Source: an uncultured Gammaproteobacteria bacterium (GTDB lineage Bacteria > Patescibacteriota > Microgenomatia > Daviesbacterales > UBA10151). From it: a DNA stretch of 64,000 nucleotides. The notes beneath the pieces were generated by a model. It did no database searches and was not told the origin of the DNA. It saw nothing but the letters and a program-made list of their open reading frames with translations. This document shows, piece by piece, positions 52,341 to 59,448 of this stretch; within the stretch, counting starts at the first letter, position 1, and every line of letters begins with the position of its first letter. The DNA is taken from the NCBI GenBank assembly GCA_964649615.1, contig CAZYPW010000008.1, forward strand, positions 574 to 64,573. The letters are read 5' to 3'. Position numbers and translations under genes: made by a program.

Positions 52341-52799
52341 TTAATTCATTCTATTACTACCTTGTTGCGGAAAACCTATTCTTTGTCCATCTGCTTCAAC
52401 TTCATCTCCAAACTTAATACCTGCTCTGGCAGACAAAGCTATTGATTCAATTAGATTTCGTATCTGATAAACATCTCTCCTGAAAAGTTTATCAACAAAG
52501 ATATCAAAACCTCCTGTTAAACTTTTAACATGGATGTGTCCAAAAAATGGACCAGCCGATGCATCTACACAGGCAATATCTGTAGCCATAATAGAAATCA
52601 CTTCATCAGCCCACAGGCCATAATTTTTCATCCAAATCACCCTCAACTGCTCAATGATCAACTGATCAGGAAACAAAGTTAAAGGGAAAATCTGCTTAAA
52701 ACGACCTAAAACTTTAGAACTTGTATCTTCTCCGTCAAATGTTCTAACTCCCACTACTTGATCCAGTTGCCAAATTCCGGTTTGAGCAAGGTATCTCAT
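52341..52799 (-). CDS. Hypothetical protein co-transcribed with the MarR regulator
   Basis: ATGA overlap with marR. I recognise no motif. Confidence 0.3.
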   Translation of the reverse strand: MRYLAQTGIWQLDQVVGVRTFDGEDTSSKVLGRFKQIFPLTLFPDQLIIEQLRVIWMKNYGLWADEVISIMATDIACVDASAGPFFGHIHVKSLTGGFDIFVDKLFRRDVYQIRNLIESIALSARAGIKFGDEVEADGQRIGFPQQGSNRMN

Positions 52800-54166: not shown

Positions 54167-54739
54167 TTGAAAAAACAAACCAAAAATAATCAAATATTTT
54201 CTAAACTTACTATACTGGCCGTGTTGAGCCTTTTCCTTTCTGGATACCACCCGGCTCTTAGCTTTCCACCGGTAGAACTCTCAGATACCCTAGCTCACGA
54301 AAACCAAGAGCAAAAGGAAGAGATTTTAGCCTCATCTTTTAGGGAAGCTGTTATCTTGCCTCACCCCGGATATTTATCAACTAGGTATTCTACTTTCCAT
54401 CCAGGAGTAGATATTGCCTCAGGTTTAGGCATGCCAATTCACCCCATTAATCCAGGTCAAATTATAGAAACTGGCAGAGATTTTTTTGGCTTAGGAAATT
54501 ATATAATCATCTCTCATGAAAATGGATTTAAATCAAAATATGCCCATCTGGGCAAAATATTTGTTAAAAAGAATCAACCTGTTAACACAGAAAATACTTT
54601 AGGGGAAGTTGGGATGACTGGAAATACCTCAGGCCCTCATACGCATTTGGAAATCACTCTCAATGGAAATTTTATTGATCCTCAAACAATACTTCCAGAA
54701 ATTCCACCTATTCCACAGCAAACTCTTTCTAAGAAATAA
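54167..54739 (+). CDS. M23/LytM-family metallopeptidase
   Basis: HPGVDIA and GMTGNTSGPHTHLEI (HxH) motifs follow a signal peptide. Confidence 0.8.
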   Translation: MKKQTKNNQIFSKLTILAVLSLFLSGYHPALSFPPVELSDTLAHENQEQKEEILASSFREAVILPHPGYLSTRYSTFHPGVDIASGLGMPIHPINPGQIIETGRDFFGLGNYIIISHENGFKSKYAHLGKIFVKKNQPVNTENTLGEVGMTGNTSGPHTHLEITLNGNFIDPQTILPEIPPIPQQTLSKK

Positions 54740-54757
54740 CCCTGGGACTATTTCCTT

Positions 54758-55351
54758 TCAGGAAATAACTTCACCCTCCACAGTAGTCAGGGGTGTCCCT
54801 CTTAAGCCTAATTGCTCTCTTTCTCTATTGATTGATCTTTCAAGCAGATTTTTTATTTCTATTGGATAATCAACATAGTCTAAAGATATTTCTCCTTTAT
54901 TCATTCCAGCAGTGTTAACTACAATTCTGCCATGATGGAAAAAGATCCTATCCACAAATCCCTGAATCACTTCAATATGGGTTATTTTATCAAATAAAGC
55001 AGAACTTAAGGTCACTGAAAATAAGCCTTTTTTAATAATCACTCTGCTGGTAGTAAGCAGGTATCTGCGGGAATGGTAAGTATGGAGGGTTTTTAAAATA
55101 GCAAAAATAGCCATCAAAGTTAAAGCAATAACCAAGGAGGTTAATAGGCCTAATTTTAAAATCCAGGCTAAACCAAACCCTAATACCCCAAAGATAATGC
55201 CTGGAAACAGTAGATAGATACAGAATTTGCTTCTTAAATAAGCATTAGATAAACCAGTCACCAAAACTAATTCCTCATCCTCTGATAAATATTTAGCAAA
55301 CACCTTTTTTTGTTTCTCAGTAGGAGATTCCCTATAGTGGAACTTAGCCAT
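54758..55351 (-). CDS. Bacterial PH-domain (DUF304/YdbS-like) membrane protein
   Basis: Two TM helices are followed by a bPH domain reading ...YLLTTSRVIIKKGLFSVTLSSALFDKITHIEV.... Confidence 0.55.
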   Translation of the reverse strand: MAKFHYRESPTEKQKKVFAKYLSEDEELVLVTGLSNAYLRSKFCIYLLFPGIIFGVLGFGLAWILKLGLLTSLVIALTLMAIFAILKTLHTYHSRRYLLTTSRVIIKKGLFSVTLSSALFDKITHIEVIQGFVDRIFFHHGRIVVNTAGMNKGEISLDYVDYPIEIKNLLERSINREREQLGLRGTPLTTVEGEVIS

Positions 55352-55398
55352 TAAAAGTATTGTACTATACCCTAAACCCTATACACTATTCCCTAATT

Positions 55399-57012
<1,614 letters not shown>

Positions 57013-57014
57013 AA

Positions 57015-57269
57015 TTATTCTATAAATCTAGTATTAGCGCCAGGTATTGTACTTACATCTTTTGCTGGAATTCCAATTCCATACAAAGAACCACCCCTCA
57101 TAAAGTCTTCCAATCCTCTATCTAATCTATTAGCTGCATTATCAGTTATACTTACCACCATCTCTGGTTGTATAGGATTTGTAGCTCGAACAATTGCACC
57201 ATATATCCTATCAACTCGATCTGGTCCAACATATTCTTCAAAACTTATCTTTGGTGCGTATTCTGCCAT
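57015..57269 (-). CDS. 84-aa protein of unknown function inserted between groES and groEL
   Basis: Only 1 nt separates it from the groES stop and 2 nt from the groEL start. Its own SD GGAGAA lies 5 nt upstream of the ATG. I recognise no motif ([39 protein letters not shown]...). Confidence 0.5.
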
Positions 57270-57270
57270 A

Positions 57271-57594
57271 TTAGTTCTCCAATATCGCCATCAAGTCATC
57301 AAATTTGACTAATTTTAATTCCTTTCCTTCTATTTTTATTTCATCCCCACCCCATTTTTTATAAACCACTTTATCCCCATTTTTTACCGGGCATTTAACA
57401 GTCTTGCCATTCTCCATCACCATGTCATCTCCACAAGCAATTACTATGCCTTGGGCTGGTTTTTCCTGGGCCCCTTCGGGTAAATATATGCCAGAGGCTG
57501 TTTTGGTTTCCGCTTCACTAGGTTGCACCAAACAATAACCCATTAAGGGTTTTATGTTTATTTTTGAAGTTGTATTTTTACTAACTTTTGACAT
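57271..57594 (-). CDS. groES: Co-chaperonin GroES
   Basis: The Cpn10 fold reads ...IKPLMGYCLVQPSEAETKTASGIYLPEGAQEKP.QGIVIACG.... Confidence 0.9.
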   Translation of the reverse strand: MSKVSKNTTSKINIKPLMGYCLVQPSEAETKTASGIYLPEGAQEKPAQGIVIACGDDMVMENGKTVKCPVKNGDKVVYKKWGGDEIKIEGKELKLVKFDDLMAILEN

Positions 57595-57652
57595 ATGAAA
57601 TTAACATGAGGCAGAGCTGAGTTAGATTTATACCAAAAACTAGCACTGCTTG

Positions 57653-58513
57653 TCAAGCCCTGCTAATTTTTTGTTTGTAGAGCTTTAAAATGTTAGGTCT
57701 GATATCTAAAGGGTGGAGGTACAAAGCCCCTTCTTGTATCCGTTCCATACCTTCTGGCTTTTTCATAATTTTTAGCTGTATCCACCTTGCTATCTTTTCT
57801 AATAAGTCAAAAGTTTTGAGATTTGATTTGTAGGTTTGAGATTTGCGTTTTGAGATTTGCGTTTTTTCTCCAATCCAATTTGGTAAAAACTTAAAAGCCC
57901 AACTGTTATCAGACAAATACTTGGTATAAATTCCCTCCCTTTGCCAAAGAAGCTTCATTTGCAAAACTTCATGGGCAGTATATAGATCTTTAAACAATTG
58001 CTCCAAATGGTCTTCATCCAAAATAGTATTCAAACAAAATTTTCCCCGGGCATCTTTAAAACTCATCCCGACTTTTCTTCTTACTCCAAAAAAATCTAGA
58101 ATAAATATGACCAGCATCCGGGATAACCAAAGCCTGTTTTTATCAGTAATTAAAAACAAATCTATATCATCACGTTTTTCACTATTCTCAAGGGCTAATC
58201 CACCTGAAATTCCCACTAATTTTACCCAGGGAATAATTTTAAGAAATTGACCAAATATTTTTGCTTTTTTAAAATAAATTTCTGATTGCTTTTCTCTTCT
58301 TTTTCTTTTTAAAACCAGTTGTTTATGGTTCTTCAAAAAATAAAAGTCCCCGGAGTTACCAATTTTTCTTTTTTTAAAAAGTCTGGTTAATGCTTTTTCT
58401 ACTTGCCAGAAAGTGGCTTGTTTTCCAATCAGCCATTTATGAATTTCGTAGGCTTTCATTGGAAACAAAAAAATATTGGCATAAATTAATGTTTTTAAAA
58501 CCGCCTTTTCCAT
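57653..58513 (-). CDS. Hypothetical protein with a nucleotidyltransferase-fold signature (GISGGLA...DDIDLFLI) carrying an internal heptamer array
   Basis: The GS-x(n)-DxD pattern is present. The array at 57814-57862 (ttttgag/atttgat/ttgtagg/tttgaga/tttgcgt/tttgaga/tttgcgt) encodes a K/S/Q-rich segment. Confidence 0.35.
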   Translation of the reverse strand: MEKAVLKTLIYANIFLFPMKAYEIHKWLIGKQATFWQVEKALTRLFKKRKIGNSGDFYFLKNHKQLVLKRKRREKQSEIYFKKAKIFGQFLKIIPWVKLVGISGGLALENSEKRDDIDLFLITDKNRLWLSRMLVIFILDFFGVRRKVGMSFKDARGKFCLNTILDEDHLEQLFKDLYTAHEVLQMKLLWQREGIYTKYLSDNSWAFKFLPNWIGEKTQISKRKSQTYKSNLKTFDLLEKIARWIQLKIMKKPEGMERIQEGALYLHPLDIRPNILKLYKQKISRA

Positions 58514-58530
58514 AGGAGTATAATAATCAA

Positions 58531-59448
58531 ATGCAAATTAAAAGTAACTACCCGCTATCACAAGTTACCACTTTACAAATTGGTGGTCCTGCTAAAAAGT
58601 TTGTTGAAGTGTCTTCAAATGAAGAATTAACAAAGGCAATAAATTTTGCCAAAGCAAATAACCTGAATTATTTAGTAATAGGCGAAGGGAGTAATTTATT
58701 AGTTTCTGATAAAGGGGTTGATAAATTAATTATTAAAAATTCTATCACTGGTATAGCCTCACAGGGTTCAACCTTACGAGTTCAAAGCGGCACTGTTTTA
58801 CAAGAGTTAGTGGATTTTTCCATTAAATATGGACTAGCTGGATTACAAAAATTAACCGGTATCCCCGGAACTGTGGGTGGTGCAATTTACGGAAATGCCG
58901 GAGCATATGGACAAACAATCTCAGACCATATTGTGGAGGTTACTGTTCTGAATCCTTCAACTGTCATTCCCGCGCAGGGGTGTGGTTTTAATTATCGGGA
59001 CAGCAACTTCAAAAGAAATCACCATATCATCTTAGAAGTTACTTTCCAATTTGAAAAATCTGATCCACAGATTATGAAGGCTGAAGCAAAAGAAGTCTTA
59101 TCTAAAAGACTGGTTAAGTATCCTCCGGGAATAAAATGCCCCGGATCTTTTTTTAAAAATATAGTGGCAGATACTTTGTCAAAAGAAATTTTAGACAAAA
59201 TACCTAAAAAAGCTATAATCTACGGTAAGCTTCCAGCAGGGTATCTTTTAGAACAAGTTGGAGCTAAAGGGAATTCATTAGATGGAATTTATATCGCAGA
59301 TTATCATGCAAACTTATTTATAAATAATGACCATGGAAATGCTCAGGCCTTCCATGATTTAGCCAAAAAATATGCTGAAAAAGTTTATGAAAAATATGGA
59401 ATTAAATTAGAACCAGAAGTACAGCTTATTAACCTACCTCCGCTTTAA
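58531..59448 (+). CDS. murB: UDP-N-acetylenolpyruvoylglucosamine reductase
   Basis: A FAD-binding N-terminus (LQIGGPAKKFVEV...LVIGEGSNLL) and the MurB C-terminal domain are present. Confidence 0.85.
   Translation: MQIKSNYPLSQVTTLQIGGPAKKFVEVSSNEELTKAINFAKANNLNYLVIGEGSNLLVSDKGVDKLIIKNSITGIASQGSTLRVQSGTVLQELVDFSIKYGLAGLQKLTGIPGTVGGAIYGNAGAYGQTISDHIVEVTVLNPSTVIPAQGCGFNYRDSNFKRNHHIILEVTFQFEKSDPQIMKAEAKEVLSKRLVKYPPGIKCPGSFFKNIVADTLSKEILDKIPKKAIIYGKLPAGYLLEQVGAKGNSLDGIYIADYHANLFINNDHGNAQAFHDLAKKYAEKVYEKYGIKLEPEVQLINLPPL

Follow-up and report, generated by a model that had tools for sequence, protein, structure and literature searches.

The window analyzed here is a 64,000-nucleotide (nt) stretch of contig CAZYPW010000008.1 (positions 574 to 64,573; GenBank assembly GCA_964649615.1), from a bacterium placed by GTDB in the Daviesbacterales (Patescibacteriota; Microgenomatia). 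It carries the chaperonin genes groES and groEL, which elsewhere constitute a textbook inseparable, stoichiometrically coupled bicistron. Here the two are parted by an additional open reading frame (ORF) of 84 codons, hereafter ORF84, annotated in the database as hypothetical protein HYS92_00925 (MBI2017591.1) of a Candidatus Daviesbacteria metagenome-assembled genome (GCA_016176385.1; contig JACOXE010000004.1, 146 kb). On its coding signature ORF84 is a real, host-adapted protein gene, and the comparison with related loci indicates that it occupies a recurrent, Daviesbacteria-specific insertion slot, the contents of which differ from lineage to lineage.

The groES-ORF84-groEL Operon

The three genes lie on one strand (Table 1), with stop-to-start distances of 1 and 2 nt at the two junctions of ORF84, which read TTGGAGAAC TAA T ATG (groES/ORF84) and GAA TAA TT ATG (ORF84/groEL). 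A first description of the window, made from its letters and called here the sequence-only reading, had reported an ORF with its own Shine-Dalgarno sequence (SD), GGAGAA, beginning 1 nt after the groES stop and ending 2 nt before the groEL ATG, with all three genes translationally coupled. This layout is borne out by the coordinates, and an arrangement suited to coupling on both sides of ORF84 appears equally sound, given the two junctions and the lack of internal signals: consensus scans detected neither a sigma-70-like promoter nor an intrinsic terminator on the minus strand at 57012-57271, and no site resembling CIRCE (controlling inverted repeat of chaperone expression) between groES and groEL. 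The tetramers GGAG, GAGG and AGGA are absent 4-20 nt upstream of the groEL ATG. A GGAGAA-type element precedes groEL in relatives with an empty slot, and precedes ORF84 in the window; the arrangement at junction 1 is that of the native groES/groEL junction of two such empty-site relatives (L067 and L144).

Upstream of groES, CIRCE-like half-sites (TTAGCA-N15-TGCTAG, 57640-57666) enclose a -35 element, TTGACA (57651-57656), followed by the extended -10 element TGGTATAAAT (57626-57635). Written out, the CIRCE-like inverted repeat in the region 57626-57666 (minus strand) is TTAGCAGGG-N9-CAGTGCTAG, flanking the -35 TTGACA. The architecture TTAGCA-N3-CTTGACAAG-N3-TGCTAR recurs 5' of groES in many Daviesbacteria loci, among empty and occupied relatives alike, and never inside the slot. 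Resemblance to the CIRCE/HrcA operator and to the sigma-70 consensus, from which we presume the function of this region, suggests HrcA-type heat-shock control of the operon through an operator that overlaps the promoter.

Table 1. Features of the groES-ORF84-groEL operon, in window coordinates.
Feature	Position	Strand	Basis or remark
Putative promoter region of the operon	57626..57666	-	read in sequence; same architecture 5' of groES in relatives
groES, 107 amino acids (aa)	57271..57594	-	Pfam Cpn10 2e-28; NCBIfam GroES models
SD-like GGAGAA, in the final groES codons	57275..57280	-	7 nt 5' of the ORF84 ATG
Junction 1, TAA-T-ATGGCAGAA: groES stop, 1 nt, ORF84 start	57261..57273	-	sequence
ORF84, orphan slot gene, 84 aa, isoelectric point (pI) 4.8, seven Arg and two Lys (R7/K2)	57015..57269	-	coding signature; no family
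Tandem micro-duplication GGAATT GGAATT (6 nt; Gly-Ile-Gly-Ile), within ORF84	57069..57080	-	sequence
Junction 2, GAA-TAA-TT-ATGGCAAAA: ORF84 stop, 2 nt, groEL start	57004..57020	-	sequence
groEL, 537 aa	55399..57012	-	TIGR02348 2e-225; Pfam Cpn60_TCP1

ORF84 as a Coding Gene

A stop-free sense frame covers 98% of the 258-nt gap between groES and groEL, an extent matched by 0.7% of dinucleotide shuffles. The G+C content of ORF84 at the three codon positions (GC1/GC2/GC3) is 0.51/0.44/0.15, and its in-frame codon-usage log-odds of 0.32 bits per codon compare with 0.34 +/- 0.09 for 48 window genes; the other five frames score negative or near zero. The sequence-only reading had taken ORF84 for a genuine gene of no recognized motif, in which it is upheld by this coding signature and by the database searches below. 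It had also remarked on Arg codons that differ from those of the neighboring genes; this remark does not hold, and an argument for foreign origin built on it fails, the choice of Arg codons being genome-like (AGA share, Fisher p = 1.0; CGA, p = 0.046, from two codons and uncorrected). What is unusual is the Arg/Lys balance (R7/K2), in a host with an R/K ratio of 0.44 and more than twice as much Lys as Arg genome-wide, and ORF84 is a composition outlier among the small ORFs of the window. The sole other small window ORF with more Arg than Lys (R10/K6) is one of 152 aa at 52341-52799 on the minus strand.

On the plus strand, a frame antisense to ORF84 (57000-57300) is stop-free for approximately 100 codons, extending into groEL and groES, and a stop-free antisense frame is found in several other slots (L004, L009, L028 and L039). 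We rejected it as a gene, as it lacks a start codon and runs into both adjoining genes; its openness is probably a by-product of sense-strand codon bias. Derivation of ORF84, or of slot ORFs in general, from frameshifted host coding sequence is likewise not supported, given canonical GC1 > GC2 > GC3 in their own frame and no DNA similarity.

Searches for Relatives of ORF84

On the searches made, ORF84 is an orphan without a homologue outside its lineage. It has no Pfam or NCBIfam match at E <= 1 and no PHROGs match, and PADLOC returned nothing for it or for five further orphan slot ORFs. No nuclease or integrase domain, homing endonucleases included, was found in it with these four resources; nor does it contain a transposase domain, and no inverted or direct repeats flank 57013-57270. 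It is a single ORF without a toxin or antitoxin partner gene. Rfam gave 0 matches at E <= 1 across 54500-58600, and the RNA folding z-score of the ORF84 region (0.07) is no better than that of shuffles. Neither a copy of ORF84 nor a source fragment, in any frame, was found in the window or in 160 related groESL loci, and tblastn of the protein in those loci gave no match.

A word-seeded search of 5.8 billion cluster representatives matched ORF84 with itself only, while an exhaustive phmmer search of 1.84 billion representatives (from approximately 15 billion proteins) returned ORF84 and four long repeat proteins, namely three beta-propellers of LVIVD/EPTP type and one MBG-repeat protein. The E-values of these, as low as 1.9e-14 (P0002), are sums over 7-17 non-independent repeats; the best single-repeat score is at most 11.7 bits, with a per-repeat (independent) E-value of at least 2.7e4. 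Residues 26-66 of ORF84 align to single repeats of P0002, P0003 and P0005 around a motif of the type (T/S)(N/D)PxxPxxVxSITD. We rejected homology to LVIVD (PF08309) or EPTP (PF03736) as repeat-amplified noise, since the unrelated MBG-repeat protein matches the same segment; moreover, ORF84 is a single unit, from which a propeller cannot form. A single-sequence AlphaFold2 model predicts helices, with low confidence (predicted local distance difference test, pLDDT, 49). Of the routes by which the sequence-only reading had proposed to place the protein, then, the sequence search yielded a self-match and repeat-protein noise, structure prediction a low-confidence model, and the survey of related groESL loci, described below, a slot that recurs (in 44% of Daviesbacteria-like loci) around a sequence that does not.

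Several specific identities were considered and set aside. ORF84 is not recognizable as a paralogue or fragment of GroES/Cpn10 or GroEL/Cpn60: there is no profile match, and the gap compared with its own groES and groEL (blastn, tblastx) gave nothing at E <= 0.05. By eye, its ends suggest duplicated groEL 5' and groES 3' ends (PKISFEE resembling AKILKFD, and RFIE-stop resembling AILE-stop), an origin which we rejected because the alignment is not significant (p = 0.60 against the groEL 5' end and 0.32 against the groES 3' end; local alignment versus shuffles); across 41 slots, similarity of slot ends to these two gene ends is not enriched. An integron cassette is contradicted by the 2 nt from the ORF84 stop to the groEL ATG, the lack of a 3' inverted repeat and the lack of an integrase among the called neighbors. 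Mimicry of the GroES mobile loop is doubtful: the strict motif is not enriched among slot ORFs, and the looser G-hydrophobic-P motif, which occurs in 13 of 47 of them where shuffles give 5.3, shows a weak excess that is similar in host proteins.

A Recurrent Insertion Slot in Daviesbacteria

Related loci were drawn from one genome per species plus metagenomes, scanned with the window GroES to give the 160 groESL loci, which were then dereplicated. We call a locus Daviesbacteria-like if its groEL starts MAKILKF, its slot occupied if it holds at least one sense ORF of at least 60 aa, and its junction tight if it spans at most 20 nt. Among 89 distinct Daviesbacteria-like loci, 39 (44%) are occupied and 41 tight, the other nine carrying short inserts, mini-ORFs of 9-31 aa, or elements resembling miniature inverted-repeat transposable elements (MITE-like). 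Among 42 distinct loci from other Microgenomates, two (5%) are occupied and 12 tight, and 27 of the remaining 28 have ordinary non-coding spacers of 21-149 nt. The difference in occupancy (39/89 versus 2/42) is highly significant (Fisher p = 1.9e-6), and identifies the groES/groEL junction, as far as these loci represent the group, as a recurrent insertion slot specific to Daviesbacteria. The sequence-only reading had held that absence or non-conservation in close relatives, joined to a lack of purifying selection, would refute its account; the ORF84 sequence is indeed absent from them, but the slot is not.

The empty junction reads TTGGAGTAAAAATATGGCAAAGATATTAAAATTTGAT; in the tight Daviesbacteria-like loci it consists of TAA, 1-8 nt and ATG, typically TAA-AAAT-ATG. 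In occupied loci the first slot ORF starts at the position where groEL starts in empty ones, the SD within the groES 3' end and the TAA-N1-4-ATG arrangement being unchanged. The 5' junction spans at most 9 nt in 29 of the 39 occupied loci, and the distance from the end of the slot ORF to the groEL ATG is at most 16 nt in 36 of them. Counting the two loci outside Daviesbacteria, slots contain one ORF (35 loci), two (five) or three (one), with a median length of 106 aa (range 65-230). All 20 tested gaps of at least 190 nt are filled by sense ORFs, which cover 88-99% of single-ORF gaps (shuffle P <= 0.03 each), and GC1 exceeds GC3 in 48 of 48 non-redundant slot ORFs. The window type of junction (...AAC-TAA-T-ATG) illustrates the variability of what follows it, as it is empty in L067 and L144 and leads into different ORFs in L003, L004, L019, L090, L110 and L141.

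Many of the relatives are TPA_asm metagenome-assembled genomes (MAGs) titled 'uncultured Gammaproteobacteria bacterium' or 'uncultured Pseudomonadales bacterium' (L002-L004, L007, L014, L018 and many more). Their GroES is 75-87% identical to that of Daviesbacteria, and they have the AT-rich flanks of candidate phyla radiation (CPR) genomes; the organism labels look wrong.

Turnover and Constraint of Slot ORFs

The contents of the slot are scarcely shared, even among near relatives. Only three related pairs were found by phmmer among the 48 non-redundant slot ORFs, one of them from near-identical strains and another comprising tandem paralogues within a single locus (L042). With GroEL identity over residues 1-300 as a coarse clock, slot ORFs are homologous in one of 26 pairs of occupied loci at 94-97% identity, and in none of 639 pairs below 94%. 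Insert DNAs are unrelated apart from short initiation regions and MITE-like elements, and occupied and empty states are interleaved on the GroES+GroEL tree. The suggestion in the sequence-only reading of a new chaperonin accessory is thus not sustained in the sense of a conserved partner: neither the 160 loci nor the large protein collections hold an orthologue, and relatives' slots contain unrelated ORFs.

The one informative pair, from L028 and L129, diverged at 95% GroEL identity; its slot ORFs are 67% identical, with an 11-residue indel, and have a ratio of non-synonymous to synonymous substitution rates (dN/dS) of 0.29, compared with 0.03-0.04 for groES and groEL of the same genomes. A profile of this pair found no third member among the 5.8 billion representatives. 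At the rate of change seen in it, one could still recognize orthologues in the remaining 25 pairs, and so their contents have been replaced or independently gained, and have not merely diverged. Ten slot ORFs that were looked up are all annotated 'hypothetical protein', and belong to singleton or two-member clusters among the approximately 15 billion proteins. Identical slot ORFs do occur in separately deposited assemblies (L003 and L082, L010 and L092, L015 and L106, L028 and L123; P0013, the L028 ORF, is found on 34 contigs, in Rifle-type samples), which rules out an assembly artefact for slot ORFs as a class.

Two further observations concern length. The inserts of L037 and L136 are 99.7% identical and differ by a 1-nt indel, with ORFs of 124 and 113 aa; the indel leaves approximately 45 untranslated nt before groEL. 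If it is not a sequencing error, it is a frameshift that the locus tolerates, and the truncation bears on whether coupling is strictly required. Mini-ORFs also occupy the slot, of 24 aa in L006 and L091 and of 9 aa in L041. The L006 mini-ORF agrees with a 65-aa ORF in L102 at the N-terminus (MAE..P..MSVE[DE]IF) and at the 3' end (ggaattaatt), and looks like an internal deletion of it, which suggests that slot ORFs can lose length in addition to gaining it. Large internal duplications, considered as a route of growth, are not enriched.

Composition of Slot ORFs

Unrelated as they are in sequence, slot ORFs share a composition. Relative to 224 flanking host proteins (all comparisons p < 1e-4), they are enriched in Arg (2.07-fold), Glu (1.56-fold) and Gly (1.25-fold) and depleted in Lys (0.60-fold) and Phe (0.66-fold); they are more hydrophilic (grand average of hydropathy, GRAVY, -0.41 against -0.18), and their pI is lower (6.8 against 8.1). 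ORF84, Arg/Glu-rich, Lys-poor and hydrophilic, agrees with this profile. The purine and G contents of slot ORFs (0.61 and 0.26) are at the level of groES and groEL, compared with 0.54 and 0.21 for average genes. SD-like tetramers are enriched in slot ORFs exactly as codon composition predicts, and the sole positional signal is a two-fold peak in the final 30 nt, corresponding to the SD for groEL; selection for internal SD-like motifs was therefore rejected as the cause of the Arg/Glu/Gly richness. The composition may be due to selection for polypeptides that are harmless, soluble and highly expressed, to a function in common, or to origin.

Origin of the Slot

As the ancestral spacer is only 1-8 nt long, DNA must have been added to it, and several relatives retain marks of how this may have happened. 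The groES gene of Daviesbacteria ends AAA-TTT-GAT-GAT-TTA-ATG-GCA-ATT-TTG-GAG-TAA (KFDDLMAILE-stop) and groEL begins ATG-GCA-AAG-ATA-TTA-AAA-TTT-GAT (MAKILKFD), so that the two gene ends share a microhomology of up to 11 nt (TAAAATTTGAT), in copies approximately 50 nt apart. Microhomology of at least 8 nt is found in 23 of 93 Daviesbacteria-like loci, compared with one of 37 others (p = 8e-8); within the clade, occupied and empty loci do not differ in this respect. In L014 (4683-4737), a mini-ORF, MAKILKFDDLMAILEN followed by a stop, lies between two slot ORFs with native TAA-N-ATG junctions on both sides. Its DNA, ATG GCT AAG ATA TTA AAA TTT GAC GAC TTA ATG GCA ATT TTG GAG AAT TAA, encodes MAKILKF-DDLMAILEN-stop, in which codons 1-7 of groEL run in frame into the last codons of groES. 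Judging from its sequence, such a product is to be expected where the shared AAATTTGAT (K-F-D) microhomology undergoes unequal recombination or slippage. In L108, the junction is repeated before the second slot ORF.

Other loci carry recognizable or candidate mobile DNA. The slot of L030 (4321-5384) contains two ORFs, one of 122 aa in which hydrophobic segments are predicted and another, Cys-rich, of 230 aa. The latter begins with a duplicated groEL N-terminus (MAKILKF) and resembles phage HNH endonucleases (phrog_1271, E = 2e-4); ATT rather than ATG appears to be the start codon of the real groEL that follows. MITE-like palindromic elements lie directly after the groES stop in L020, L022, L034/L130, L122 and L146, of two types at the groES 3' end (ccctccattgtcatcctgag...ctcagaatgacaa and agttgacaatttgtg...). 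In L033, L042 and L096, the final ~8 codons of groES occur again, in diverged form, behind a MITE-like element, which gives the impression that the element brought a replacement groES end with it. The slot ORF of L140 (930-1286), the only one with a confident family assignment, encodes a 23S-rRNA-IVS protein (PF05635, 1.6e-29; also bAvd-like), a family which we take to be typical of inserted DNA. Taken together, the sequences of these loci portray the junction as a clade-specific hot spot that gathers duplications, small mobile elements and ORF-bearing DNA. Within ORF84 itself, the GGAATT micro-duplication hints at slippage; micro-duplications of 6-12 nt occur in several other slot ORFs.

Further Features Around the Operon

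Adjoining the 5' side of groES in the window, a conserved-looking ORF of 286 aa (57653-58513, minus strand) has no Pfam family and a sub-threshold match to DUF5457 only. A low-complexity, A/T/G-rich motif, TAGGGAATAGTGTATAGGGTTTAGGGTATAG, lies 3' of the window groEL (55352-55398), with a counterpart, ggtatagcgtatagggtttggggtatag, in L146; similar non-coding leader motifs in or around the operon are gtattaagtataaagtattaag (L014, L113 and L148) and aattaagaataaagaattatgaattaagg (L010). Curtissbacteria spacers carry palindromic repeats of ctac/gtag type instead (L044 and L154).

Discussion

We propose that ORF84 is a young, lineage-specific gene which hitch-hikes in a clade-specific insertion hot spot, and not a conserved chaperonin subunit; we consider the case for this reading to be evenly poised, resting as it does on nucleotide and protein sequences. 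According to this proposal, groES, ORF84 and groEL would be co-transcribed from the one heat-shock-type promoter upstream. Ribosomes terminating on groES would initiate ORF84 at an initiation site owned by groEL in empty relatives, and those terminating on ORF84 would re-initiate on groEL, which lacks an SD of its own. A premature stop codon in the insert would then be polar, uncoupling or lowering the synthesis of GroEL, the product of an essential gene, and the open frame could be selected whatever the sequence of the encoded protein. Since groEL translation would pass through the insert, the frame would stay open irrespective of protein function, and the model accounts for gap-filling ORFs, their non-conservation and variable length, and the conserved junction geometry. 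The hydrophilic, Arg/Glu-rich composition of ORF84 might be shaped for harmless high-level expression. The slot itself may open by unequal recombination or slippage at the groES 3'/groEL 5' microhomology, as partly shown at other loci. Slot protein sequences appear to be only weakly to moderately constrained, and to be replaced quickly on the evolutionary scale.

A number of observations weigh against this proposal. An SD precedes groEL in 22 of 42 long slots, and in roughly half of these slots, therefore, groEL could be translated whether or not the insert is. The dN/dS of 0.29 in the one alignable pair, together with the shared Arg/Glu-rich composition, amounts to more protein-level selection than a pure spacer needs, and 44% of lineages keep an insert, where the loss of useless ones might be expected of streamlined CPR genomes; hitch-hiking alone explains none of the three. 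Some selection on the protein must exist, at least against harmful products and possibly for function. In ORF84 itself, junction duplications or element marks of the kinds found in L014, L030, L033, L042, L096 and L108 are not detectable, no donor sequence for its 258 nt emerged from the protein search, the window or the related loci, and the gene is known from one assembly. Insertion frequency, lastly, was measured at the groES/groEL junction alone.

If protein-level selection is taken as the dominant signal, slot ORFs might encode functional, lineage-specific proteins linked to the chaperonin (whether modulating it in a species-specific way, as its obligate clients, or as arms-race effectors, against GroEL-dependent phages or in host interaction, for instance), with the slot kept for heat-shock-coupled expression at chaperonin level and the diversity arising from diversifying selection and replacement. 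Purifying selection in the alignable family, a non-random and slot-specific composition common to unrelated ORFs, retention in 44% of the lineages of a streamlined clade and the weak excess of G-hydrophobic-P motifs are all compatible with this, but slot ORFs share no sequence, motif or length, 41 of 89 lineages do without any insert, the strict mobile-loop-like motif shows no enrichment and the loose one is in similar excess among host proteins, and neither defence models nor the AlphaFold2 model of ORF84 (pLDDT 49) lend it form; we regard it as unlikely. A bolder variant of the same idea, which we find just as doubtful, is that the junction has evolved into an 'innovation slot', in which new or captured coding sequence is plugged into the strongest stress-inducible coupled context, some residents, possibly including ORF84, being functional chaperonin partners, clients, regulators or arms-race proteins kept diverse by selection. 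Somewhat more improbable is that ORF84 is the cargo or remnant of a selfish or mobile element which targets the conserved junction, as was implied where the sequence-only reading spoke of a selfish insertion riding a heat-shock transcript. That suggestion captured the nature of the site, an insertion hot spot where MITE-like elements (L020, L022, L034, L122 and L146; L033, L042 and L096), an HNH-endonuclease-like ORF (L030) and a 23S-rRNA-IVS protein (L140) are found and where occupied and empty loci are intermingled on the GroES/GroEL tree; it fits ORF84 itself poorly, as a 258-nt insert too small for autonomy, with host-like codon usage, no nuclease, transposase or integrase domain, no mobility gene or terminal repeats, and no second copy in the window or the related loci. 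Most slot inserts, moreover, are clean ORFs without element ends.

Descent of all slot ORFs from one ancient gene in the Daviesbacteria ancestor, since diverged beyond recognition and lost in half of the lineages, seems to us very improbable. A start ATGGCAGAA(AGA), encoding MAE(R), is common to many slot ORFs, there are N-terminal resemblances ('FEIKKT' in L110 and L147; L006 and L102; 'MAEY..FEE' in the window and L148), and GroEL identities of 85-90% imply deep divergence. Yet these starts represent a generic initiation context (GGAGAAAAT-ATG-GCA-GAA) that is also found at second and third slot ORFs, a slot may hold one, two or three ORFs of anything between 65 and 230 aa, and at a GroEL identity of 95% the ORFs of L028 and L129 are still 67% identical, whereas in 25 other pairs no identity is left. 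That ORF84 is no gene at all, and instead a chance-open non-coding spacer or an assembly artefact, is the least credible of the alternatives and can very nearly be dismissed: it does come from a single MAG assembly and the antisense frame is also stop-free, but that frame has no start codon and runs into both neighboring genes, the in-frame codon score of ORF84 equals that of host genes (other frames being negative or near zero, with GC3 at 0.15), and elsewhere all 20 tested gaps of at least 190 nt are filled by sense ORFs, some of which recur identically in separate assemblies.

Whatever the residents do, a candidate-phylum clade tolerates an unrelated extra ORF within the groES-groEL relay in nearly half of its lineages. 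If the hitch-hiking proposal is correct, the slot would offer at least 35 independent natural 'experiments' in the birth or capture of coding sequence at one highly expressed site, allowing the birth, survival and composition of orphan genes to be compared across lineages, and would provide a case in which an ORF may owe its preservation to polarity on the essential gene downstream rather than to what it encodes. It would also advise caution in annotation, and in marker work based on groEL/cpn60, in Patescibacteria. Any slot proteins that turned out to bind the chaperonin would represent new modulators of it, and should the junction be an 'innovation slot', it would constitute a natural, repeatedly used site of gene birth within one of the most conserved operons.

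Comparison with Known Systems

A full-text literature search, covering few subscription journals, found ORFs at the groES/groEL junction described neither for Patescibacteria nor for other organisms; several known systems nevertheless resemble parts of this one. In termination-reinitiation coupling, stop and start codons lie 1-4 nt apart or overlap, and the downstream gene, with a weak or absent SD, relies on upstream ribosomes. The stop/start spacing of a few nt around ORF84 and the lack of an SD before groEL conform to this textbook arrangement, whereas the putative relay here would run through a non-conserved orphan ORF, and coupling would serve to preserve a frame rather than to match the amounts of two partners. 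Phage morons are equipped with a promoter and a terminator of their own, and a nuclease is the product of homing-endonuclease genes. The slot ORFs are like morons and free-standing homing-endonuclease insertions in being extra genes between conserved neighbors, patchily distributed among relatives, and the HNH-like ORF of L030 extends the likeness; ORF84 differs in having neither its own promoter or terminator nor a nuclease, and in lying in a cellular chaperonin operon rather than in a phage.

The proto-genes or 'ismORFs' of Enterobacteriaceae are lineage-specific and of high turnover, 15-70 codons long, and situated mostly in ordinary intergenic DNA (PMC11188072). As in that system, slot ORFs are lineage-specific, turn over rapidly at syntenic sites which are empty in relatives, and often lie within 10 nt of, or overlap, their neighbors, which suggests recruitment into operons (PMC11188072). 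De novo intergenic microproteins of Enterobacteriaceae lean toward hydrophobicity, a consequence of the AT-rich DNA between genes (PMC11188072); slot ORFs, by contrast with ismORFs, are 65-230 aa long, hydrophilic and Arg/Glu-rich, and are inserted within an essential bicistron, in an ancestral spacer of 1-8 nt, at one site in 44% of lineages. A looser parallel is provided by the corynebacterial porA and porH genes beside groEL2, which are reported to be autonomously transcribed and to possess their own terminators, belong to a recognizable family and encode a cell-wall channel (PMC3792995). Like the slot ORFs, these are very small, fast-evolving, lineage-variable ORFs beside a chaperonin gene, and vary in number (PMC3792995); unlike them, the slot ORFs lie between groES and groEL, and not downstream of groEL2, and belong to no common family. 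Orphan and hitch-hiker genes in operons are thus already known, and what sets the present system apart is its location, its recurrence at a single site, and a composition shared by the slot ORFs as a class.

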